Part shown: positions 1 through 13,382 of the stretch, in pieces
Numbering within the stretch: position 1 is the stretch's first letter
Layout: every line of letters begins with the position of its first letter
Origin: a bacterium
Lineage (GTDB): Bacteria; Eisenbacteria; RBG-16-71-46
Reading direction: 5' to 3'
Assembly: GCA_043779265.1 (NCBI GenBank)
Contig: JAYWEM010000030.1
Span: 1 to 13,382 of the forward strand
DNA length: 13,382 nucleotides
Notes under the pieces: model-generated
Told to the model about the DNA's origin: nothing
Seen by the model: the letters and a program-made list of their open reading frames with translations, nothing else
The model's database searches: none
Made by a program: the position numbers and the translations under genes

Positions 1-1497
<1,497 letters not shown>

Positions 1498-1517
1498 GGC
1501 GGGCTGCACGGCACGTG

Positions 1518-1549
1518 AAGCGCCGGATCCGAGACCGGGTCCGGCGCTT
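1518..1549. terminator. GC-rich hairpin between convergent ettA and chrA, probable bidirectional terminator
   Basis: AAGCGCCGGATCCG-agac-CGGGTCCGGCGCTT: 14-bp stem with one G-U pair, lying between the two stop codons. No long U tract. Confidence 0.6.
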
Positions 1550-1552
1550 GGC

Positions 1553-2716
1553 TCATCCCCTCAACACCACCGCACCCGCGATGCACAACGCGACCACGAG
1601 CAGCGTCGGGACTCGGCCCCTGAGGAGCAGGGCGAACGAGGCGCCCGCGATCGCGACATCCAAGGCGCCCCGGAGCGCGCTCGTGGCGACCGGGTCGATC
1701 CAGGCGGCGGCGAGCAGTCCGACGACAGCGGCGTGCACGCCCGCGATCGCTCGCGCCGCGTACCGGCGGCGCGAGATGGATCGCCACAGCGGCAGGACGC
1801 CGGCGAGCAGTAGGAAGCCCCGCAGCAGGATCGCGACCAGCGCAACCAGACCGCCCATCGCACCGCCGGTCGCGGGCATCCGCGCTCCGAGGAACATGGC
1901 GACCGAGAACATGGGACCCGGCACCGCCTGCGCCGCGCCGTAGCCGGCTAGGAAGGTCTCGCGATCGAGTGCGGCGGAAGCCACGACCACGTTCTCGAGC
2001 AGCGGCAGCACGACGTGGCCGCCGCCGAACACCAGTGCGCCGGCGCGATAGAAGCCGGCCGCCATCTCGCTCCAGGCCCCGAGCCGTTGGCCGACCACGA
2101 ACGAGAGCGTGAGGATCGCTGCGAACGAGATCATCAACGACACGCCCAGCCTCGCGCCATGCGGCAGTCGCAACTCCGCCGCCTCGGGAGCACGAGCCTC
2201 GCGGCACAGCGCGACGCCGGCGACTGCGCCTCCCGCGATGACGACGAGTTGCGCCCACGGCTCTCGCACGAGCAGGAGGAAGACGAGCGCTCCGATCGCC
2301 AACGCGATTCGCATGCCATCGCGACCGAGAGCGCGAGCCATCGAGACGACGCCGTGTGCCACGACGACGACCGCGACGAGGCCCAGACCGTGCACGATGT
2401 CGGGGCCGCGGCCCGAGGCGAGACTCGGAACGAAGTCGGCGAACAGGAGCAACAGCAGCGCCGAGGGGAGCGTGAAGGCGACGACGGCCACGAGTGCCCC
2501 GGGCCATCCAGCTCGGATCACGCCGATCCCGAACCCGAGTTGACTGCTCGCCGGGCCCGGCAGCAGCTGGCAGAGCGCGAGCAACTGCGCGAACCGGTTC
2601 TCGTTCAACCACTTACGACGCTCGACGAACTCGGTGCGGAAGTAGGTCAGGTGCGCGATCGGCCCGCCGAAGGAAGTGAGTCCCAGCCGCAGGAAGGCCA
2701 AGAACACGTCGCGCAT
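1553..2716 (-). CDS. chrA: Chromate efflux transporter, long-chain CHR family
   Basis: Two homologous halves with CHR motifs FLRLGLTSFGGPIAH...CQLLPGPASSQ and GALVFGGGHVVLPLL...GYGAAQAVPGPMFS; many hydrophobic helices. Start set at ATG 2716 (MRDVFLAF), preceded by AGGGGG. Confidence 0.9.
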   Translation of the reverse strand: MRDVFLAFLRLGLTSFGGPIAHLTYFRTEFVERRKWLNENRFAQLLALCQLLPGPASSQLGFGIGVIRAGWPGALVAVVAFTLPSALLLLLFADFVPSLASGRGPDIVHGLGLVAVVVVAHGVVSMARALGRDGMRIALAIGALVFLLLVREPWAQLVVIAGGAVAGVALCREARAPEAAELRLPHGARLGVSLMISFAAILTLSFVVGQRLGAWSEMAAGFYRAGALVFGGGHVVLPLLENVVVASAALDRETFLAGYGAAQAVPGPMFSVAMFLGARMPATGGAMGGLVALVAILLRGFLLLAGVLPLWRSISRRRYAARAIAGVHAAVVGLLAAAWIDPVATSALRGALDVAIAGASFALLLRGRVPTLLVVALCIAGAVVLRG

Positions 2717-2814
2717 GCGAAGAGCCCCCTGGTCCGCAGCCCGGCGCCTCGCCTCGGCGCCACGGCCGCAGTATCGCATGGCGGCCTTGCGTGCCGCGGG
2801 GCGGGCCCACGGCC

Positions 2815-2844
2815 TTCAGGCCCGCGCGATCCGCCCGATACTCC
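2815..2844 (+). promoter_or_regulatory. Possible sigma28 (FliA)-type promoter for the orphan HDOD gene
   Basis: TTCAGG-N13-CCCGATACTCC, resembling TCAAG-N14-GCCGATAA but with a spacer 1 nt short. Shares CCGA(G/T)ACTCC with the site at 6312-6321. Confidence 0.35.
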
Positions 2845-2939
2845 GAGCCGTAGCCTCGATGGACTCCTCGGCCCACCTTGGCCGCGGCGCTGGGATCCAC
2901 CCGCTCTCCTCACGGACGGCAGAACGGCAGGAGTGCCCC

Positions 2940-4112
2940 ATGGTTCGCGTGCTGTGTGTGCATCCGGATGCGTCAGCCCAGGAGCGGCTGCGCCGTGTCC
3001 TGCTCGAACATCGCCGCGCTTGGCTCGTCGTGAGCGCCCACAGTTCCGAGGAGGCGCTCGCCTTGATGGCCGAAGCGGCTCCCGATGTCGTGCTGACGGT
3101 GTCGAACGCTGCCTACGATGGCGTCGAGTTGCTGAGCCAGGTGCGAGACGAGTCGCCGCAGATCGTGCGCGTGCTGCTGACCGATGGACGGCTCCAGGAC
3201 GGCACGATCCGATCGCTCAAGATCGCCCATCGCGTCCTGCCCGAAGGCGCGGAGCCCTCGCTGCTCGTCGAGACCATCGCGCGCACGCTCACCATGTCGC
3301 AGCTCGTCACGCAGCCCGAGATGCGGCAGTTGCTCGGCCGCGTCGGTCATCTGCCCGTCGCCCCGCGCGTGTTCTCCGAGCTGTCGGTCCGGCTCGAAGA
3401 TCAGTCCAGCTCGGTCGATCAGCTGGCGGAGATCGTCAGCGAGGATGCCGGGCTCGCGGCGCAGGTCCTGCGGCTCGCGAACAGCGCCTACTTCGGTCGC
3501 GACCAGAACGTCACGTCATTGAGCGTCGCCGCCGCGCGTCTCGGCACGCGCCTGCTTCGAAGCATCGTGCTGGCCGCCGAGGTGTTCGATCGCTTCCACA
3601 CCGGCGACTCCCCCCTCTCGCTCGAAGCCGAGCAGAAGCACGCATCCCTCGTTGCCCGCATTGCCGCGAGCCTCGAGCCACGCGCGCCTTGGAAGGACGA
3701 CGCGTTCACCGCCGGACTCCTGCATGACGTGGGCAAGCTCGTGTTGGCGACGCGCACGCCGGAACTCTACGCCCCGGTCGTGATGCAGGCGACGGAGGAG
3801 CGGAGGTCCCTGCATGAGGTCGAGCGCGAGACGTTCGGCGTCGATCACGGCGCGCTCGGTGCCTGCCTGCTCGGCACGTGGGGTCTGCCGGCGTCGATCC
3901 TCGAGGCGGTGCATCGGCATCACCTCGAGGTGCTGAGCGGTCCGATCACGCTCGACGTGGTGCAGGCCGTTGCGTTGGCGAACCGCTTGGCGCATCAGGT
4001 CGCGCATCCCGAGGACACGGCGATCGCCTCGCTGTCGCCGGTCGCCGATCCGCGTTGGGAGTGGTGGTGCGACCTGGCGCAGCAGCTCGCCGACGAGTGC
4101 GCAGCGGTCTGA
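2940..4112 (+). CDS. HDOD-domain protein with degenerate (pseudo-)receiver domain
   Basis: ATG 2940 after CAGGAG. HDOD motifs LPVAPRVF, EDAGLAAQVLRLANSAYFG, AFTAGLLHDVGKLVL, DHGALGACLLGTWGLP. The N-terminal region follows a REC-like pattern but lacks the acidic pair, phosphoacceptor Asp and Lys. Confidence 0.85.
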   Translation: MVRVLCVHPDASAQERLRRVLLEHRRAWLVVSAHSSEEALALMAEAAPDVVLTVSNAAYDGVELLSQVRDESPQIVRVLLTDGRLQDGTIRSLKIAHRVLPEGAEPSLLVETIARTLTMSQLVTQPEMRQLLGRVGHLPVAPRVFSELSVRLEDQSSSVDQLAEIVSEDAGLAAQVLRLANSAYFGRDQNVTSLSVAAARLGTRLLRSIVLAAEVFDRFHTGDSPLSLEAEQKHASLVARIAASLEPRAPWKDDAFTAGLLHDVGKLVLATRTPELYAPVVMQATEERRSLHEVERETFGVDHGALGACLLGTWGLPASILEAVHRHHLEVLSGPITLDVVQAVALANRLAHQVAHPEDTAIASLSPVADPRWEWWCDLAQQLADECAAV

Positions 4113-4150
4113 GCCGAGGCTCCGCCCGGCACGCACGCAGCGGGAATTGG

Positions 4151-4187
4151 CAGCGGCGGCCGACCCCCGAAGGATCGGCCGCCGCTG
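4151..4187. terminator. Strong hairpin between the convergent HDOD and beta-barrel genes
   Basis: Perfect 13-bp stem CAGCGGCGGCCGA/TCGGCCGCCGCTG. On the minus strand the loop reads UCC-UUCG-GGGG, a C(UUCG)G tetraloop, favouring a role in the minus-strand OMP transcript. Confidence 0.7.
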
Positions 4188-4213
4188 GACTGCAGAACTG
4201 CGCGTGACGCGTG

Positions 4214-4801
4214 TCAGTTGCCTCCGAAATTCAGCACGCCGCCAACCGTGAACAGGTTGGCCGACTCGCCCTCGCTCGAGATCGAGTGGTAGAGCAGCTC
4301 GACGCCCATCGCCATCTTGTCGCCCAGCTTCTTCATGCCACCGATGCCGAGGTTGTAGCCGAAATCGGACGACGACTCCTCGGAGTCGCCCGACGTGGCC
4401 GTCTCGATCTTGAACTTCGTGTTGTAGATGCCGAGGCCGACGCGAGCGTACGGGATGAAGTCGCCGCCCTTGCTGAACAGGAACTTGGCGTGCGGCGTGA
4501 CCTGGATGGCCGACCAGCTGACATCGACGCTCTCGCCCGCGAGGACGGCCAGGGCCTCCTCGTAGTCGTTGTTGACGCCGAAGCTGTGGAAGTTGATATC
4601 GCCACCGATCCCGAACTGGTCGTTGATCATCATCGTGCCGGTCACGCCACCGAAGTAGCCGAGGCTCGCGATGTCGCCGAAGTCGCCGGTCGGCAGGTTG
4701 ACGCCGACATTGATACCGAACGAAGTCGAGCCCGCGGCATGCGAGGGCGAGGCGGCGAGGGCCAATGCGAAGGCTGCGGCTGCAAGGGTCTTGAACTTCA
4801 T
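4214..4801 (-). CDS. Outer-membrane beta-barrel protein (OmpA-like 8-stranded TM domain) with signal peptide
   Basis: ATG 4801 with GGAGG 7 nt upstream. Sec signal [22 protein letters not shown]; alternating amphipathic strands ([29 protein letters not shown]); terminal strand FTVGGVLNF. Confidence 0.85.
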
Positions 4802-4948
4802 GAGGAACCTCCATGTGTGAGTGGAAACACCGCGCGGGGGACGCCCGCTGCGGTGCGCGTCGAGCGAGGGGTACTCCCCTCGCCTCGAGGCCGGGTCCAG
4901 CGCCCTCTCGGGGCGGCGGACCAGGCTCATTCGAGCGGATGGCGGAGC

Positions 4949-4977
4949 AAGGTTCCCGCTGTCGCGCTCGCTGTCAA
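4949..4977 (-). promoter_or_regulatory. sigma70-type promoter for the beta-barrel gene
   Basis: Minus strand reads TTGACA (4977-4972)-N17-AACCTT (4954-4949). Perfect -35; the -10 keeps only the conserved A2 and T6. Confidence 0.5.
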
Positions 4978-4997
4978 GCAGAGCGGCCTGAGAAGAA

Positions 4998-5027
4998 TTG
5001 ACCCGCTGTGGCGAGGGCTCCTACGCT
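4998..5027 (+). promoter_or_regulatory. sigma70-type promoter for ispG (probably leaderless)
   Basis: TTGACC (4998-5003)-N18-TACGCT (5022-5027), with the ATG 8 nt further on and no Shine-Dalgarno. Confidence 0.55.
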
Positions 5028-5035
5028 GGCCGCCC

Positions 5036-6286
<1,251 letters not shown>

Positions 6287-6290
6287 GCCT

Positions 6291-6321
6291 CTCAAGTCGG
6301 GGCTCCTGAGGCCGAGACTCC
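6291..6321 (+). promoter_or_regulatory. Probable sigma28 (FliA)-type promoter for the signalling operon
   Basis: TCAA (6292-6295)-N15-GCCGAGAC (6311-6318) versus consensus TAAA-N15-GCCGATAA; about 60 nt before the GTG start. Confidence 0.5.
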
Positions 6322-6381
6322 AAAAGAAGGACCGGGTGCCCCTGCCCCCCGTGTCCTGGATCGCACCCTCGAGGTATCTCC

Positions 6382-7524
6382 GTGCGCATCATGTTCGTGG
6401 ACGATGAGTCCCGCGTTCTGGATGGGCTCCGTCGCATGCTGTTCAAACAGCGTGGGGTCTGGACCATGAGTTTCGTGACCTCCGGTGCGGAGGCGCTCGA
6501 AGCCATGGCGCAGGAGCCCTTCGATCTGATCGTCACCGATATGCGCATGCCCCAGATGGATGGGGCGACGCTGCTCGAACGCGTGCGCGAGGCCCATCCG
6601 CGAACGGTGCGACTGGTCCTCTCGGGCCATGCCGACATCGATCAGGCGATGCGCGTGATGACCGTGGCGCACCAGTACCTCGCCAAACCGTGCGAAGGGC
6701 CGACGCTGATCGCAACGATCGAGCAGGCGATGATCGTGCGCCGGCTGCTCGAGACCGATGAACTGCGCGAGTTGGTCATTCGCATCGGCAACCTGCCGCC
6801 GGCGCCCAGCACCTACACACGGATGATGAAGCTCATGTCGGACGACAACACCGGCATCGACGACTACGCCGCGTTGCTCGAAGAGGATCCGGGGCTCACA
6901 GCGAAGTTGTTGCAAGTGGCGAACTCCGCCTACTTCTCGAGCGAGGGACGCGTCAGCGAGGCCGGTGCCGCGGCATCACGCATCGGTCTCAATGCGCTCC
7001 GCTCTCTGACACTGTTCATCGAGGCCCCCGGACAGTTCGGAACATCCACGCCCGCGGTCGAGGCGATCGGACGCGAGGTCGCCGAGCGCGGTCAGCGGGC
7101 TGCCACGCTCGCGCGTCGATTCTGCGAAGTCGCCTCCGGTCGCGAAGCCGCGACCACCGCGGCGCTCCTTCATGAACTCGGCCGACTGGCACTCGCGGCG
7201 AAACTCGAGACGGAATACGCCCACGTGCTGACCAGCCTCACCAAGACCCACAGGCCGCTGCAGGAGGTCGAGCAGGAAGTGCTGGGGGCGGACCACGCCG
7301 CAGTCGGCGCCTACCTGTTCGCGCTCTGGCAACTTCCCTCGGAAGTCGTCGAGGCGATCGCCCGCCATCACGAGCAGGAGTCGCTGCCGACGCCGCTTGA
7401 CGCAGCGGGCGCAGTCCGACTCGCCGCCGCCATGATCACCGGCGTGATCCCCGAGGACTGGCGCCAGGACCCGCGCTGGGACACGTGGCAGTCCCACGGA
7501 GACGAGATGGAGAAGGCCGCATGA
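6382..7524 (+). CDS. Response regulator, REC + HDOD
   Basis: GTG start after GAGGT. Intact receiver (FVDDE, VTDMRMPQMDG, LSG, LAKP) and HDOD (LPPAP, EDPGLTAKLLQVANSAYF, LLHELGRL, DHAAVGAYLFALWQLP). Confidence 0.9.
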   Translation: MRIMFVDDESRVLDGLRRMLFKQRGVWTMSFVTSGAEALEAMAQEPFDLIVTDMRMPQMDGATLLERVREAHPRTVRLVLSGHADIDQAMRVMTVAHQYLAKPCEGPTLIATIEQAMIVRRLLETDELRELVIRIGNLPPAPSTYTRMMKLMSDDNTGIDDYAALLEEDPGLTAKLLQVANSAYFSSEGRVSEAGAAASRIGLNALRSLTLFIEAPGQFGTSTPAVEAIGREVAERGQRAATLARRFCEVASGREAATTAALLHELGRLALAAKLETEYAHVLTSLTKTHRPLQEVEQEVLGADHAAVGAYLFALWQLPSEVVEAIARHHEQESLPTPLDAAGAVRLAAAMITGVIPEDWRQDPRWDTWQSHGDEMEKAA

Positions 7525-7616
7525 GTTCGATCGCCACGCACGCGAAACGTCGGAACCCCGCGAACCCGAGCACCGACCCGTCACCTTTCGTCTGACCCTT
7601 CACGAGGAGAGAGCGC

Positions 7617-8744
7617 ATGCGAGTCCATCAGCATCTCTGGCTGCAAGGCCAGCCCATGCTCCAATCTCCAGCCGAGTCCGCACAGCTCCTGCTGGTGTTC
7701 GCTGACGCAGCGCGACTGCGAGATCCCGCGCTGTCGCAAGCGCTCGAGAACGGTTGGCCCGGAGTGCCCTCGATCGGGTGCTCCACGGCAGGCGAGATCC
7801 ATGACACTCGGGTTCACGAGGGATCCGTCAGCATCACCGCGATCTCGTTCGATCGGACGCCGTTCCGCATCGCGGTCGAAGAGGTTCGTGAGCGAGGCGA
7901 CAGCCGAGCAGTCGGGCGCGTGATTGCCGAGCGTCTTGCCGCTCCGGACCTGGCCGGGATCTTCGTGCTCTCGGATGGACTCATCGTGAACGGGAGCGAA
8001 CTCGTGCTGGGCCTCAGCTCGGCGCTGCCGGTTGGGCTCCCGCTGACTGGCGGACTCTCGGGCGATGGCGCACGATTCCAGCAGACACTCCTCCTCGCCG
8101 AGGGGGAGGTGCGCGGCGGCCGTGTGGCAGCCGTCGGATTCTATGGTGACCACATCCGAATCGGATGCGGTTCGCGAGGAGGCTGGGACCTGTTCGGTCC
8201 GACGCGGGTCATCACCCGGTCGGAAGGCAGCATCCTGCACGAGTTGGATGGCGAAGCGGCGCTGGATGCCTACAGGCGCTACCTGGGACACCACGCGGCG
8301 GACCTACCCGCGAGCGCGCTGCGATTCCCGCTATCCCTCGATATCCCCGGGCACAGTCAGGGCATCGTCCGCACCGTGCTCGGAGTGGACGCCTCCACCG
8401 GCTCGATGACGTTCGCCGGGGACATGCCCGTTGGCGCCCGAGCGCGGTTCATGCACGCGAACTTCGAGCGGCTGATCGACGGAGCTCAGGCCGCGGCCGG
8501 CGTGTGCGGACCGTCGATCCGTGAGCCAGCGGAACTCGCCATCCTGATCAGCTGTGTCGGCCGGAAACTCGTTCTGGGTCAGCGGACCGAAGAGGAGGTC
8601 GAGGGTGTTCGAGATGTTCTCGGCCCCACGACTCCGATCTCGGGATTCTACTCGTACGGTGAGATCTCGCCCTTCACGCCCGGCGCAGCCTGCGAGTTGC
8701 ACAACCAGACGATGACGATCACCACGTTCGCCGAGGCGGCCTGA
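7617..8744 (+). CDS. FIST N/C-domain sensory protein (NosP-like)
   Basis: RBS AGGAGA. FIST motifs IGCSTAGEI, SDGLIVNGSEL, GGLSGDG, ELDGEAALDAY, ISCVGRKLVLGQRTEEE, GFYSYGEISP, LHNQTMTITTF. Confidence 0.92.
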   Translation: MRVHQHLWLQGQPMLQSPAESAQLLLVFADAARLRDPALSQALENGWPGVPSIGCSTAGEIHDTRVHEGSVSITAISFDRTPFRIAVEEVRERGDSRAVGRVIAERLAAPDLAGIFVLSDGLIVNGSELVLGLSSALPVGLPLTGGLSGDGARFQQTLLLAEGEVRGGRVAAVGFYGDHIRIGCGSRGGWDLFGPTRVITRSEGSILHELDGEAALDAYRRYLGHHAADLPASALRFPLSLDIPGHSQGIVRTVLGVDASTGSMTFAGDMPVGARARFMHANFERLIDGAQAAAGVCGPSIREPAELAILISCVGRKLVLGQRTEEEVEGVRDVLGPTTPISGFYSYGEISPFTPGAACELHNQTMTITTFAEAA

Positions 8745-8745
8745 A

Positions 8746-10110
8746 ATGCACCGGCTTCTCGAACGACAGGCACAGCGGGCCTTCGGGGCGGCGGACCGGA
8801 TTCCTGAGGGTCTGGCTCCCTTCTTGGCTCTCATCTCAGCCGCCTATGACGACGCGGACCGTGACCGGGAGCTTGTGGAACACACGCTCGAGACCATGTC
8901 CCAGGAACTGTGTGCACGAAATGAGCGCCTCGCGAGTGAGCTTGTCGAACGAAAGGGCCTTGAGGCGGAACTCCGCCGACAGGCGCTGGTTCTCGGCGCA
9001 CTCAGTGAGGGGGTTCTGATGACCACGGGGACGGGTCGCATCCTGGATGCGAATCCGGCCGCCGAGCGCACACTCGGATTGAGCCGCGATCGGCTCCTCG
9101 CTTCCGGCCTGGATGAAGTCCTGAGAGGGCTCTCCGGCTCGCTCGACCTCCGTTCCATCTCCAGCACGCTTGCACGCGACGGTCGGTGGCACGGGGATCT
9201 CCGAGGACCGATGACCGACGGAACCGAAGGCGTGTTCGAGACGGTGATCGTCCCCGTTGAGGGGGCCCGCGCGGGGACCTGCTGGGCGGCCGTGCTGCGA
9301 GACGTCACGTCCCGACTCCTGCTCGAACAGCAATTGTTCCAGGCGCAGAAGCTCGAGGCGATCGGCAGCCTCGCGGCTGGCGTCGCGCATGAGATCAACA
9401 CGCCATCGCAGTATGTCGCCGACAATCTCACGTTCCTCCAGGATGCCTTCTCGACGTGGGCGGCGAGTGATGCCACGCCCGAGGGCATCGAAACGCGTGC
9501 CCAGTTGATGGAGGAGATCCCGAGCGCCATCGAGCATGCCCTCGAGGGCATGCACCACATCGCCAAGATCGTCCGGAGCATCAAGCGCTTCGCCCACCCG
9601 GGAGGCGGGAGCCGAGCGCCGATCGACTTGAACGGCGAGATCGAGAGCGCGGTCACCGTCTCACGCAACGAGTGGAAGTACTCCTCCGAGGTCGAACTCG
9701 ATCTCGCCGAGGACCTGCCCGACGTGGCCTGCTATCCGGGCGAGATCGGCCAGGTCGTGCTCAACATCCTCATCAATGCCGCGCACGCCATCGTGCAAGG
9801 CCGAGGGGATGAGTCGGTCACGGGCCACATCAGGATCTCGACTCGCCGACACGGAGACGACGTGATCGTCTCGATCGCGGACGACGGCTCAGGAATCCCC
9901 GAGTCCGTCCAAGCCCGCGTCTTCGACCCGTTCTTCACGACCAAGCCCGTCGGGAAGGGCACGGGGCAGGGGCTGGCCATCTGCCACCGCCTCGTCGTCG
10001 AGAAGCATGGCGGCGGCCTCACGTTCGAGACCCGCGAGGGGCTCGGAACCACCTTCTTCATCCGGCTTCCGATCGAGGCGCCTCTCGAGGGAGACGCGCT
10101 CGCGGCCTGA
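8746..10110 (+). CDS. Soluble PAS-domain sensor histidine kinase
   Basis: PAS (GRILDANPAAER...VLRDVT); H-box QAQKLEAIGSLAAGVAHEINTP; N-box NILINAAHA; G1 DDGSGIP; F-box FDPFFTTK; G2 GKGTGQGL. No TM helix. Starts 1 nt after the FIST stop. Confidence 0.93.
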   Translation: MHRLLERQAQRAFGAADRIPEGLAPFLALISAAYDDADRDRELVEHTLETMSQELCARNERLASELVERKGLEAELRRQALVLGALSEGVLMTTGTGRILDANPAAERTLGLSRDRLLASGLDEVLRGLSGSLDLRSISSTLARDGRWHGDLRGPMTDGTEGVFETVIVPVEGARAGTCWAAVLRDVTSRLLLEQQLFQAQKLEAIGSLAAGVAHEINTPSQYVADNLTFLQDAFSTWAASDATPEGIETRAQLMEEIPSAIEHALEGMHHIAKIVRSIKRFAHPGGGSRAPIDLNGEIESAVTVSRNEWKYSSEVELDLAEDLPDVACYPGEIGQVVLNILINAAHAIVQGRGDESVTGHIRISTRRHGDDVIVSIADDGSGIPESVQARVFDPFFTTKPVGKGTGQGLAICHRLVVEKHGGGLTFETREGLGTTFFIRLPIEAPLEGDALAA

Positions 10111-11255
10111 TGGCCACGACCCTGGAGAAGACCATGCCAACACCGCGCGTGCTCTGTGTCGACGACGACCGCAACATCCTGGAGGCGATGCGCCGTTCGC
10201 TGAAGGGCGACTTCGAACTCGTGATCGCCGTCGGCGGTGTCGAAGGGCTCCAGAAGCTCCGTGAGGAGGGCCCGTTCGCGGTGGTCATCTCCGACCTCCG
10301 GATGCCGGTGGTCGACGGTCTCACCCTGCTGCGCGAACTCTCGCAGATCGACCCCGATACGGTTGGCATCCTGCTCACCGGCAATGCCGATGTGAATGCT
10401 GCGGTCTCCGCGATCAACGAGGGACAGTTGTTCCGGTTCCTCACCAAGCCCTGCCCCGTGAAATACCTGCATGCGACGATTTCGGCTGGAATCGAGCAGT
10501 ACAAGCTGGTCACGACCGAGAAGGTGATCCTGCGCGAGACCCTGTTCACGAGCATGCGAGCCCTCTCGGAGCTCGCCTGTCTCCAGCGCCCCGATGTGGC
10601 CACCCGCGTCCAGCGCGCACGGCGTTTGGCAACCGGTCTGAGCGAGCACGCGTGTCCGCAGCAGACATGGGCGTGTGAGATCGGCATGCTCCTGCTGGTG
10701 ACCGGCTGGGTGACGCTTCCCGAGGCCGTGATGGCGCGCGCCTCCCAACCGGGAGCGCTGATGCCGTCCGACCTCGCGCAACTCGCCCGATTGCCAGCCC
10801 TGGCGTCACGGCTGATCGCCGATGTACCCCGACTCGAACTGGTTCGCGACTCGCTGGAGCAGCTGCAGCACCCGCGATCCGACGACGAGGCGCCCGTCAT
10901 CCAGGTCCTGCGCATCCTGTGGGACTACGACCGCGAATCATCGGCGGATGATGCCATTGCGCTCGAGGCACTTCGCGGCCACGGCCATCGTGAGGAGCTG
11001 AGGACTCGCTTGCATGGGCTTCTCGTCGCCGACGAGCACTCGGGCCCCACGATCGAAGTCCGGATCGGCGATCTCCAGCCCGGGATGATCCTCACCGAGA
11101 ACGTGTTCGATGAGAAGGGCTCCCTGCTCATCGGGCGTGGCACCGAAGTCGGACCGGGCCTATCCGAGCGCATTCGGAACTACTGGAGCGAGGAGTCGCG
11201 CGAGCGATCGACCAGCGTGCGTGCCCCGCAGCAGTCGGTGCGCGCGGCGGCCTGA
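10110..11255 (+). CDS. Response regulator, REC + degenerate HD-like output domain (start may be ATG 10134)
   Basis: Intact receiver (CVDDD, SDLRMPVVDG, LTG, LTKP). Helical output region without HD or GYP motifs; C-terminal DLQPGMILTENVFDEKGSLLIGRG module. TGATG overlap with the kinase; the alternative ATG at 10134 has GGAG upstream. Confidence 0.85.
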   Translation: MATTLEKTMPTPRVLCVDDDRNILEAMRRSLKGDFELVIAVGGVEGLQKLREEGPFAVVISDLRMPVVDGLTLLRELSQIDPDTVGILLTGNADVNAAVSAINEGQLFRFLTKPCPVKYLHATISAGIEQYKLVTTEKVILRETLFTSMRALSELACLQRPDVATRVQRARRLATGLSEHACPQQTWACEIGMLLLVTGWVTLPEAVMARASQPGALMPSDLAQLARLPALASRLIADVPRLELVRDSLEQLQHPRSDDEAPVIQVLRILWDYDRESSADDAIALEALRGHGHREELRTRLHGLLVADEHSGPTIEVRIGDLQPGMILTENVFDEKGSLLIGRGTEVGPGLSERIRNYWSEESRERSTSVRAPQQSVRAAA

Positions 11256-11258
11256 ATC

Positions 11259-13199
11259 TCAAGCCGAGGCGTGTGCCGCGCCGAGGCGGTCGAGCAGCGT
11301 GCGCGCGAATTCGGTCAGGGAGGGATCTCGCGCCCCCATGACCAGAACAAGATCGCCGGGCGTGGCCTCGGCGGTGATCCGCTCGATCAACGCCTCCCTC
11401 GAAGTCGCGAACTCGGCGGCCGTTCCGGCATCGGCCATGTCCGAGACCAGGTCGGCAGCCGAGAAATCCCGCACGGCGGTGCCTCCCGCGTAGAAGATCT
11501 CGAGCAGCCAGACGCGGTCCTCGGGTCCAAGCGTGTTGCAGAAGGTCTCGACCAGATCCTCTCTCAGGAATCGAGTCGGGCCGTAGCCGTGCGGCTGGAA
11601 CACGGCCAACACGCGGCGCGCACGTCGATGCGCCGTGTCGATCGCCGCCGCGATCTTGGCGGGATTGTGCGCGAAGTCATCGATGACCTCGACGCCGCGT
11701 GCCGTACCGAGCGACTGGAATCGCCGGCCGACGCCGCGGAATCGGGACAGCGGGGCGGCGAACTCGGCGAGCGGGACCCCCAGCGCGAGACCCACGGCCA
11801 GCGCGGCGAGTGCGTTCTCCACGTTGTGTCGTCCTGGCACGGGAAGGGTCACTCGCGTGCCATTCACCGTGAACGCACTGCCTCCTGCTTCCAGCACAAC
11901 GTCCGTGGCACGCACCTCGGCCCGCTCGCCGAATCCGAAGAGGAGCGATCCCGGATGCAGGCTCGCGAGCGCGTCGGCCTCACCGCAGACGAAGCGATCG
12001 CGCGTGCGATTCCGGAACTGCTCGAACATCGTGAGCACCTCGGCCTCGGTCTTATGATCCCGCGTCAGGTTGAGTGCGACACCAAGGGCGGGCCGATAGC
12101 GCACGAGCGAGCCATCACTCTCGTCGGCCTCCACGACGAGCAGATCGCTTCCGCCGGACCACGCGTTGCCCCACAGTCCCTCCTCCTCAAGGCAGACCAG
12201 TTCGCCGCCGGTGATCACGGAAGGGTCGCGCCCCGACCCCCTCAGGGCCTCGAACACCATCGCCACCACGGTCGACTTGCCACTCGTCCCGGAGATCGCG
12301 ATCGAACGCATGCTGGCCACCCAAAGCGCGAGCATCTCGGAGCGATGCACGATGGGAAGCTCGAGTCGGCGGGCTGCTGCGACGTCGGGAACGCTCTCCT
12401 CCACGGCGGTCGAGACGACCAGAGCGGATGCTCCCTCCACGCCGCTGCCGTCCTGCGCCGCGATCGAGATCCCCATCCGCTCCAGCCGCGCACGCGCATC
12501 GTCGCGCTCCGCACGATCGAAGCCGCGGTCGCTGCCGCTGACCGAACCGCCGCGCATCGCCTGGAACTGCGCCAGCGCGCTCATGCCGCTCCCGCCGACG
12601 CCTGCGTAGTGGAAACGCCCGCCTGCGATCGGATCGGGCATCTCGCCGGGGCCGGGGGCCACGATCACGACGAGATCCCCTTCGCGGACCCGATCGAAGA
12701 GATCGGTCACGGCCTGATTGGAGAACCGGACGCAACCGTGCGAGACCGCCTGACCGAGGGAGTCCTCCTGATTGGTGCCATGCAGGTAGATGAAGCGTTC
12801 GAGCGAGTCCCGCTCCCCACCCTGATTGACCGTCGGCTCGAGACCCTCGAGCGTCAGAATGCGTGTGAGGATCAGGTCGTCGGCACGCGTCTCACCCGTC
12901 CATCGCTCGCCGGTCGGTTCACGGCTCACGAAGATGGTCCCCGATTCTGCGCCGTCGCCCACCTTGCGCTGGATGCGATGCCACCCGGGCGGCGTCTTGA
13001 AAGACCCTCGCAGTCCGCCGATGCCCTCGGCCGCGGTCGATACGGACCAATCCGCCACGACCCGACCATCCTCGTACCACCAGGCGTGCTGCGCCTCGGT
13101 GCCGATGACGAGCACACGCGGAGGTGCCTCGCGCAGTGGCGAGCGGGCGCGCTTGAGTGCCGAGGCGAGCAGTGAGTTGGGGTCCGCAGGATGGGTCAT
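11259..13199 (-). CDS. Fusion protein: N-terminal YkuD/L,D-transpeptidase-family (ElsL-like) domain + MurC-like Mur ligase
   Basis: One uninterrupted frame from ATG 13199. YkuD: KTPPGWH, ILTRILTLEGLE, FIYLHGTN...SHGCVRF. Mur ligase: HYAGVGGSGMSALA, GSD, SGTSGKST (P-loop), VVEADESDGS, DH, GRHNVENALAA, GVGRRFQ, DDFAHNP, FQPHGYGPTR, VLVMGARD. Confidence 0.88.
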   Translation of the reverse strand: MTHPADPNSLLASALKRARSPLREAPPRVLVIGTEAQHAWWYEDGRVVADWSVSTAAEGIGGLRGSFKTPPGWHRIQRKVGDGAESGTIFVSREPTGERWTGETRADDLILTRILTLEGLEPTVNQGGERDSLERFIYLHGTNQEDSLGQAVSHGCVRFSNQAVTDLFDRVREGDLVVIVAPGPGEMPDPIAGGRFHYAGVGGSGMSALAQFQAMRGGSVSGSDRGFDRAERDDARARLERMGISIAAQDGSGVEGASALVVSTAVEESVPDVAAARRLELPIVHRSEMLALWVASMRSIAISGTSGKSTVVAMVFEALRGSGRDPSVITGGELVCLEEEGLWGNAWSGGSDLLVVEADESDGSLVRYRPALGVALNLTRDHKTEAEVLTMFEQFRNRTRDRFVCGEADALASLHPGSLLFGFGERAEVRATDVVLEAGGSAFTVNGTRVTLPVPGRHNVENALAALAVGLALGVPLAEFAAPLSRFRGVGRRFQSLGTARGVEVIDDFAHNPAKIAAAIDTAHRRARRVLAVFQPHGYGPTRFLREDLVETFCNTLGPEDRVWLLEIFYAGGTAVRDFSAADLVSDMADAGTAAEFATSREALIERITAEATPGDLVLVMGARDPSLTEFARTLLDRLGAAHASA

Positions 13200-13243
13200 G
13201 TGCGCGAGGGTGCCACACTGGCGAGGCGACAGCACGGCGTACA

Positions 13244-13322
13244 ATCGGGATAGGGGGTAGCGGGTTTGCCCCGCTACGCCCCTCCCACACCACCGGACAT
13301 GCGGGTCCGCATCCGGCGGTTC
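13244..13322 (-). mobile_element. 3' end (domains V and VI) of a class C (IIC) group II intron; may be a remnant or extend beyond the window
   Basis: Minus strand: 32-nt D5 ACCGCCGGA-TGCG-GACC-CGCA-TG-TCCGGTGGT (13320-13289) with CGC triad. D6 GGGAGGGGCGTAGCGGG-GCAAA-CCCGCTACCCCCT-A-TCCC with a bulged A (13251), ending in GAT (AY 3' splice site at 13244). Confidence 0.88.
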
Positions 13323-13382
13323 GGAAAGTTGACGGCGTGCCACAACGGCCCGCCTGTGCTTGTGATTCGTGCAGCGTCGTCG

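Follow-up and report, generated by a model that had tools for sequence, protein, structure and literature searches.

Can two steps of peptidoglycan recycling be carried by a single polypeptide chain? The question is raised by a gene on the reverse strand of a stretch of 13,382 nucleotides, hereafter the window, from a bacterium of the Eisenbacteria lineage (GenBank assembly GCA_043779265.1, contig JAYWEM010000030.1, positions 1 to 13,382). The gene encodes a protein of 646 amino acids in which a YkuD domain resembling the L,D-carboxypeptidase ElsL is followed by a complete Mur ligase. Recycling of stem peptides through an L,D-carboxypeptidase and the murein-peptide ligase Mpl is established mainly in gammaproteobacteria. 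We consider it likely that the fusion is a cytoplasmic bifunctional enzyme of peptidoglycan-peptide recycling, with trimming of the tetrapeptide and Mpl-like ligation in one chain; both enzymatic activities are inferred from sequence, and comparative evidence speaks for this reading. Its strongest support, unforeseen by an earlier sequence-only reading of the locus, is that the same ligase family occurs fused or adjacent to LdcA, an L,D-carboxypeptidase that is not homologous to the YkuD domain.

Architecture and conservation of the fusion protein

The sequence-only reading had described an open reading frame of 646 residues in which a catalytically intact YkuD domain is connected through a short Pro/Gly linker to a complete three-domain Mur ligase. 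The gene indeed translates as one unbroken frame closed by a stop codon, and profile searches with gathering cut-offs applied found four Pfam domains in the protein (YkuD, Mur_ligase, Mur_ligase_M and Mur_ligase_C), each over its cut-off, the YkuD match spanning profile positions 2-146 of 146. The catalytic histidine and cysteine lie exactly where they had been placed and are invariant among the aligned fusion homologues, and the linker APGPGEMPDP was recovered as described (Table 1). The linker region has a length of 19 in 105 of 122 fusions. An AlphaFold2 model built on an alignment of 53 fusions was confident for both parts (mean predicted local distance difference test, pLDDT, 88.3; predicted template modelling score, pTM, 0.71), with the linker as its lowest-confidence internal block.

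The protein had also been read as lacking a signal peptide or transmembrane helix. This held by hydropathy, a crude test of export that is not a signal-peptide prediction: the highest 19-residue Kyte-Doolittle mean was 0.53 (segments starting in the first 60 residues), an N-terminal hydrophobic stretch being absent, and in the first 70 residues of 122 fusions the 19-residue mean was never above 1.48. No further Pfam domain besides YkuD was found in the N-terminal part, so by Pfam there is no peptidoglycan-binding domain. The frame is open upstream as far as a GTG at 13343. We took the ATG at 13199 as the start because homologues of 646 residues cover its product from end to end and because the segment 13244-13321 on the same strand was recognised as the terminal part, at the 3' side, of a group II intron (domains V/VI; Rfam RF00029, 41.5 bits with a gathering score of 40, E 4e-7). 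The intron end stops 45 nucleotides upstream of the ATG and the window terminates inside the intron. In public sequencing runs this segment reaches a depth of hundreds to thousands with many different loose ends, which marks it as a repeated mobile element.

The architecture recurs in related genomes. In a homologue search over 5.8 billion proteins, 7919 matches were scored among 8000 candidates, and the best 120 of these 7919, which are 62-80% identical and about 646 residues long, share the four-domain Pfam architecture without exception, with the name Candidatus Eisenbacteria wherever one is given. Among representatives at 50% identity there were two full-length fusion clusters and one partial, and a 46%-identical fusion cluster is named Chitinispirillaceae (Fibrobacterota). 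Both parts also lie in a single open frame in an unclassified bacterium (G201) and in a member of the Fibrobacteraceae (G212). The same arrangement is thus present in at least 120 protein clusters, mostly from Candidatus Eisenbacteria and also from Fibrobacterota. Clusters with YkuD and Mur ligase domains are found in the ESM Atlas too; their taxon labels, resting on few members, were not used.

As a sample of the phylum, we used 200 genomes together with the window genome (201 in all). An ElsL-like match was present in 89 of the 201, exactly one in each, and it lay at the ligase locus wherever coordinates were compared. The 89 matches comprise 74 in frames of at least 500 residues, 10 short separate frames and 5 fragments or frameshifted copies. 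Five relatives carry the YkuD gene (186-218 residues) and the ligase gene as separate neighbours on the same strand, overlapping by 4-38 nucleotides in G045, G113, G176 and G083 (longest-frame starts) and adjoining without overlap in G063. The relatives carry either the fusion or adjacent genes, so that two unlinked genes, which would have spoken against a functional module, were not seen. The fusion is genuine and conserved.

Table 1. Features of the fusion gene and its product, with positions in the window
Feature	Position	Strand	Evidence
Fusion coding sequence, 646 residues	11259..13199	-	Stop codon 11259-11261; open frame; homologues of 646 residues align over 100%
YkuD catalytic domain, ElsL-like, residues 28-179	12663..13118	-	Pfam PF03734, 75.1 bits (cut-off 23.4)
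Catalytic His140 (YLHGT)	12780..12782	-	Invariant in 122/122 fusions
Catalytic Cys156 (SHGCVR)	12732..12734	-	Invariant in 122/122 fusions
Pro/Gly linker APGPGEMPDP, residues 181-190 (10 residues)	12630..12659	-	Sequence; AlphaFold2 mean pLDDT 67
Mur ligase N-terminal (UDP-binding) domain, residues 196-294, loop GVGGSGMS	12318..12614	-	Pfam PF01225, 49.3 bits
Mur ligase middle (ATP-binding) domain, residues 302-469, P-loop GTSGKS (12273-12290) and EADESD	11793..12296	-	Pfam PF08245, 39.7 bits
Mur ligase C-terminal (incoming-substrate) domain, residues 492-624	11328..11726	-	Pfam PF02875, 74.7 bits
Paralogue signature DDFAHNP, residues 507-513	11661..11681	-	Alignment to H. influenzae MurC; motif table
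Paralogue signature QPHGYGP, residues 535-541	11577..11597	-	Gly538 and Pro541 at the MurC R377 and R380 positions

An ElsL-like domain joined to a MurC paralogue

The likeness of the N-terminal domain to ElsL, which had been proposed from sequence motifs, is borne out by profile scores. Among curated families the domain fits ElsL best (NF040925; 116.5 bits, E 1e-33, profile positions 26-158 of 164), and models of periplasmic L,D-transpeptidases score 22-25 bits on it, about 90 bits under the ElsL model. The kinship rests on these profile scores, and the domain is not an ElsL equivalog (116.5 bits against a curated cut-off of 270). A profile search found it to be the sole YkuD match in the whole genome. 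ElsL (LdtK) of Acinetobacter baumannii resembles it in having a single YkuD domain with the histidine and cysteine, no secretion signal and no peptidoglycan-binding domain; ElsL, however, is a stand-alone protein of about 164 residues, whereas the domain in the window is covalently joined to a ligase. According to the available text of Dai et al. 2021 (PMC8649774), ElsL is a cytoplasmic L,D-carboxypeptidase of the YkuD family acting upstream of Mpl, and null mutations in mpl suppress the elsL ldtAb defect. The criteria given there for ElsL orthologues were the absence of a signal peptide, transmembrane helix or peptidoglycan-binding domain, and proteins of more than 200 residues were dropped, because of which fusions could not appear in that search.

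A near-length search with the N-terminal domain returned mostly stand-alone forms of about 194 residues together with fragments, and no protein named ElsL was among the returned sequences. Many of the stand-alone forms of this size (P0411, P0419, P0420 and others) are labelled 'UDP-N-acetylmuramate--alanine ligase', a label that is probably a misannotation copied from the fused forms. A longer stand-alone relative of 232 residues (P0472; 55% identity), on a 581-kb contig, is named Methyloceanibacter stevinii.

The ligase half had been called MurC-like. This stood in so far as MurC is its best-scoring family, but the ligase is not simply MurC-like and belongs instead to a distinct and widespread paralogue with an altered amino-acid pocket. 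It scored 290.3 bits on the murC model TIGR01082 (cut-off 335.1) and 93.9 bits on the mpl model TIGR01081 (cut-off 388.7). Its nearest relatives in the PDB are MurC structures (E 8.5e-52), with Mpl (3HN7) far weaker (E 4.6e-19). The canonical murC of the genome, at 522.6 bits, is on contig C179 beside other mur ligase matches.

The change in the pocket can be located residue by residue. The available text of Das et al. 2011 (PMC3060825) names Y346, H348, H376, R377 and R380 of Haemophilus influenzae MurC as binding the incoming L-Ala. In a HMMER alignment the window protein has F, H, H, G and P at these positions, with Gly538 and Pro541 in place of R377 and R380, the two arginines that hold the carboxylate of L-Ala. 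The motifs DDYGHHP and QPHRYSRTR of MurC accordingly read DDFAHNP and QPHGYGPTR in the window protein, and E. coli Mpl has DDFAHHP. The glycine and proline are kept in all nine fusions compared (9/9); among unfused Eisenbacteria paralogues the R377 position is glycine in 13/13 and the R380 position proline in 12/13; and two of the three LdcA fusions described below carry both replacements, the third having QPHGFSA. The combined pattern DD[FY][AG]HNP and QPHG[FY]xP was found in the same 9/9 fusions, in the unfused Eisenbacteria paralogues, in 16/16 alphaproteobacterial relatives and in nearly all of 137 representatives examined. HR[YF][ST]R is retained in five canonical Eisenbacteria MurC proteins and in E. 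coli MurC. E. coli Mpl is likewise without both arginines and has S and M there.

Mpl-specific motifs, given as GI(C/G)GTFM and (S/T)AFFDKRSK in the available text of Das et al. 2011 (PMC3060825), were sought in an alignment of the window protein with E. coli Mpl: the loop reads GVGGSGMS and the FFDKRSK insert is absent. All aligned fusions (53/53) agree in residues G304-S309 of the P-loop, E357-D362 (EADESD), the DH and the UDP loop. As the UDP loop, P-loop and EADESD are kept and the pocket is changed, the enzyme seems to have kept its activity with ATP and a UDP-sugar while accepting another incoming substrate.

In a maximum-likelihood tree of 82 ligase domains, the canonical MurC proteins of E. 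coli and Eisenbacteria form one clade (Shimodaira-Hasegawa-like approximate likelihood-ratio test, SH-aLRT, 99), all 74 paralogue rows fall on the other side (SH-aLRT 93), and E. coli Mpl stands on a long, separate outgroup branch. The rows included every third of the representatives of 420-480 residues and 4 of the 16 alphaproteobacterial relatives; the tree comes from a short IQ-TREE search under LG+G4 with SH-aLRT support only, and with one Mpl and seven canonical MurC its deep order is unsettled. The window ligase scores 572 bits on a profile of the paralogues (A1) and sits in their clade.

Judged by these comparisons, the ligase half is a member of a distinct MurC paralogue family that is neither canonical MurC nor Mpl. 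With MurC it shares the best-matching family and PDB relatives, the UDP loop, the P-loop and EADESD, while GSDR plus an insert, QDGSG, YYAGGT and MGARD set the paralogue family apart from MurC as family-specific features. With Mpl it shares the three-domain plan of a Mur ligase of the MurC lineage, the loss of the arginines for the L-Ala carboxylate, D-F-A-H where MurC has D-Y-G-H, and the partnership with an L,D-carboxypeptidase. It differs from Mpl in its weak score on the Mpl model, in lacking the FFDKRSK insert and the GI(C/G)GTFM loop, and in its separate branch of the tree. If the function is the same, the Mpl-type activity would have arisen independently in the paralogue.

Carboxypeptidase partners of the paralogue and the distribution of Mpl

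The paralogue ligase was also found joined to a second carboxypeptidase. A representative at 50% identity (P0240, 742 residues) carries the paralogue ligase followed by a C-terminal Peptidase_S66/S66C, the LdcA fold, by our own Pfam run. Precomputed Pfam annotation gave three clusters of such ligase and S66 fusions, two of them 85% identical and the third 45%, named Alphaproteobacteria. To follow the unfused ligase, the signature DD[YF]AHNPxK was scanned in species-representative genomes; it gave at least 600 stretches, 598 of the 600 listed encode a relative, and 80 loci belonging to genomes of named species were kept. Among the matches listed, paralogue loci come from Planctomycetota (Brocadia), Bacteroidota, Elusimicrobiota, Nitrospirota, Alphaproteobacteria and Latescibacterota, and further from Kiritimatiellia, Fibrobacterota (Fibrobacteraceae), Gemmatimonadales, Armatimonadota and others.

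When the neighbours of these loci were clustered without a prior, LdcA was the most recurrent family, present in 12 of the 72 gene-called loci and always directly downstream on the same strand. A tblastn check found LdcA in this position in 14/80 loci and 4.5 kb away in one more, and an ElsL-like gene or domain lies directly upstream of the paralogue in 4/80. The paralogue ligase is therefore independently linked to two unrelated L,D-carboxypeptidase families, the ElsL-type YkuD and LdcA. The two-protein route of E. coli, LdcA and Mpl, offers the same pair of reactions as is proposed for the fusion; unlike that route, the carboxypeptidase in the window has the unrelated YkuD fold.

Besides LdcA, other cell-wall genes were seen at some paralogue loci. 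Four alphaproteobacterial loci (L075, L083, L094 and L118) have an SLT-domain lytic transglycosylase upstream of the ligase-ldcA pair, at a distance of two to three genes (for example L118:5568-7286, reverse strand), a placement that would fit a gene cluster for turnover and recycling. Four Flavobacteriales loci (L054, L063, L078 and L107, of which L078 belongs to a Chryseobacterium isolate) have, two to three genes away from the ligase, a gene for an 815-residue protein that joins a Mur ligase middle domain to an entire alanine racemase (for example L107:3788-6235, reverse strand).

Presence of the paralogue in whole genomes was called with a profile of 35 diverse paralogues at E <= 1e-109, on which full-length members score 493-586 bits and canonical MurC no more than 362; fragments at contig ends in two genomes (G078, G090) were classed as paralogue by score per residue. 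The paralogue was present in 135 of the 200 phylum genomes, and 134 of these, including the unpublished genome G015, also have an ElsL-like domain or LdcA, only one having neither. Where the paralogue is absent (65 genomes), 18 have one of the carboxypeptidases and 47 have neither. As related genomes are not independent, these counts overstate the association, and the pattern by family is the safer statement. Family f1 has an ElsL-like match in 76/86 genomes and LdcA in 0/86, family f7 has ElsL-like in 0/41 and LdcA in 39/41, families f10 and f2 have LdcA in 12/12 and 9/9, and in the eight families that lack the paralogue (33 genomes) no carboxypeptidase of either kind is present.

No Mpl match exceeded its cut-off in the phylum sample (0/201 genomes) or in paralogue-bearing genomes of other phyla (0/33), so that the paralogue never shares a genome with Mpl among the 234 genomes tested. 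In 32 of the 33 genomes of other phyla a canonical MurC over its cut-off is present, with the paralogue as the second match; LdcA was found in 20 and an ElsL-like domain in 3. The remaining ten (G203, G204, G206, G209, G211, G216, G218, G226, G230 and G233), in which a canonical MurC accompanies the paralogue but LdcA, ElsL-like and Mpl were all not found, are four Elusimicrobiota, three Brocadiia/Brocadiaceae, one Porphyromonadaceae, one 'Proteobacteria bacterium' and one 'Clostridia' metagenome-assembled genome. Either they hold an unrecognised carboxypeptidase, or they use the tripeptide directly, or their ligase has another role.

The window genome is 92% complete. The sequence-only reading had looked to a separate canonical murC with mpl and ldcA absent, and this is what was found: murC is on contig C179, no mpl match exceeded the cut-off, and no LdcA/S66 gene was detected, as in the 86 other genomes of its family (0/86). 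Of other recycling functions, the genome encodes AnmK (337 bits), a NagZ-like gene of glycoside hydrolase family 3, two AmpG-like genes of the major facilitator superfamily under the family cut-off, and four Amidase_3 matches.

The proposed recycling role and its alternatives

In the mechanism we propose, the YkuD domain would act as an L,D-carboxypeptidase, as its likeness to the ElsL family suggests, and the ligase half would join the resulting tripeptide to UDP-N-acetylmuramic acid (UDP-MurNAc), the reaction of Mpl, as its linkage to carboxypeptidases and the changes in its pocket suggest. MurF would then add D-Ala-D-Ala, a step belonging to the established pathway. The available text of PMC8649774 and of a second paper has trimming before ligation in the known pathway, and has mis-loading of the tetrapeptide as what harms ldcA or elsL mutants; a trimmer fused to the ligase would keep it from loading untrimmed tetrapeptide onto UDP-MurNAc. 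With somewhat less assurance than for the recycling role of the fusion, we favour the view that the ligase half represents a widespread and unnamed second kind of murein-peptide ligase, derived from MurC independently of Mpl.

Several observations weigh against this role. The YkuD domain scores under the curated ElsL cut-off and the ligase half under those of both MurC and Mpl, and for no member of the fusions or of the paralogue family was an activity report found in open-access papers and bioRxiv. The association with carboxypeptidases, inflated by kinship as noted above, also has exceptions: one of the 135 paralogue genomes (G200, 70% complete) has neither enzyme, 18 of the 65 paralogue-negative phylum genomes have a carboxypeptidase without the paralogue (4 of the 18 being truncated or broken fusions), and neither LdcA nor ElsL-like was found in 10/33 paralogue genomes of other phyla, for which completeness was not reported. 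No cell-wall genes were found among the neighbours of the fusion in the window or in five relatives, where none recurred. Finally, an AmpD-type Amidase_2 was not found in the window genome (92% complete) and was present in only 5/61 genomes of its family. Inside the cell, release of the peptide requires an amidase of the AmpD type. The window genome has AnmK and the NagZ-like gene, yet Amidase_3 enzymes were the only amidases found; import of peptides may take the place of the missing step.

Part of this evidence bears on other readings of the same protein. The two activities could operate in another order or on another form of the substrate: the ligase would load the tetrapeptide, or another stem-peptide form, and the YkuD domain would then trim UDP-MurNAc-tetrapeptide, or the YkuD domain would act on anhydro-N-acetylmuramic acid (anhMurNAc)-tetrapeptide ahead of an amidase. 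Mpl enzymes are described as taking tetra- and pentapeptides, though less efficiently (available text of Das et al. 2011, PMC3060825), and ElsL is drawn as acting on anhMurNAc-tetrapeptide (available text of PMC8649774). A fused trimmer would be equally useful as a proof-reader of the product. The carboxypeptidase occupies the N-terminal side in fusions of the ElsL type but the C-terminal side in those with LdcA, so the sequence of the two reactions cannot be read off from gene order. The known pathway trims before it ligates, while our data do not distinguish the order of steps; we regard the two variants, taken jointly, as unlikely. A shade less probable still is that the ligase adds some other single amino acid, a dipeptide or another amine to a nucleotide sugar, either UDP-MurNAc or one related to it, with the YkuD domain editing or exchanging residues on this precursor, for instance the terminal D-amino acid in an exchange of the L,D-transpeptidase type. 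Exchange reactions are a known activity of YkuD enzymes, which speaks for such a role, as do the ten of 33 genomes without a recognised L,D-carboxypeptidase. The ligase itself leaves room for it, as the UDP- and ATP-binding motifs are kept and only the pocket for the incoming substrate is changed, which points to a new substrate without giving its identity. Such a role, however, leaves unexplained why two unrelated carboxypeptidases, which have only tetrapeptide trimming in common, are fused or adjacent to this ligase, and why the paralogue and Mpl were not once found together in 234 genomes.

That the N-terminal domain is an exported L,D-transpeptidase, and the fusion an artefact of annotation or assembly or a pseudogene, is very improbable and close to refuted. 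In G043, G064, G145 and G026 the parts do lie in different frames or carry an internal stop, and the only full-length read support comes from runs that are possibly the source of the window DNA: mapping over the junction gave one contig of 7170 nucleotides (two runs) that covers 11000-13272 with 0 differences or indels, a result that is not independent for this reason, and from two other runs (X3 and X4) came short pieces of contigs, none across the domain junction. Against an artefact, several data sources contain the intact fusion, in no fewer than 120 clusters altogether, and 74 of the 89 ElsL-like matches in the phylum sample lie in open frames of at least 500 residues. An exported protein is further opposed by the lack of an N-terminal hydrophobic stretch in what is the only YkuD domain of the genome, and the structural model is confident for both parts.

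A bifunctional recycling enzyme thus remains the reading we prefer. The earlier statement that no characterised fusion of this kind is known held for open-access papers and bioRxiv, where no description of the fusion or the paralogue family was found, although absence there is no proof. The logic of the pathway is already known, in contrast to the ligase family and the two fusion architectures, which are uncharacterised. If the paralogue family does the work of Mpl, the view of recycling would need revision for many phyla, and the stem-peptide loop would be closed in many bacteria currently thought to be without one. The same reaction would then have evolved twice from MurC, and two unrelated carboxypeptidases would have been recruited to the same ligase. 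Lineages with the ligase but without LdcA or ElsL, such as Elusimicrobiota and anammox bacteria, would hold a third L,D-carboxypeptidase or use the tripeptide directly. The fusion offers a one-protein handle for testing the Mpl-type role, and in the organisms studied the recycling pathway bears on beta-lactam susceptibility (available text of PMC8649774).

The surroundings of the fusion are of a different character. A run of signalling genes on the forward strand of the window (2676-11255) comprises two response-regulator/HDOD proteins (2676-4112 and 6382-7524), a FIST protein (7617-8744), a PAS histidine kinase (8746-10110) and a response regulator with an HD-type domain (10110-11255), the last convergent with the fusion. 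An ispG/GcpE gene is at 4211-6286 in the window, and two relatives have ispG next to the fusion in convergent orientation. Apart from these, two genes for Opp-type ATP-binding cassette ATPases (ABC_tran and oligo_HPY) adjoin the fusion at L139:9890-11898, an arrangement seen only in G097, where it may hint at peptide import.

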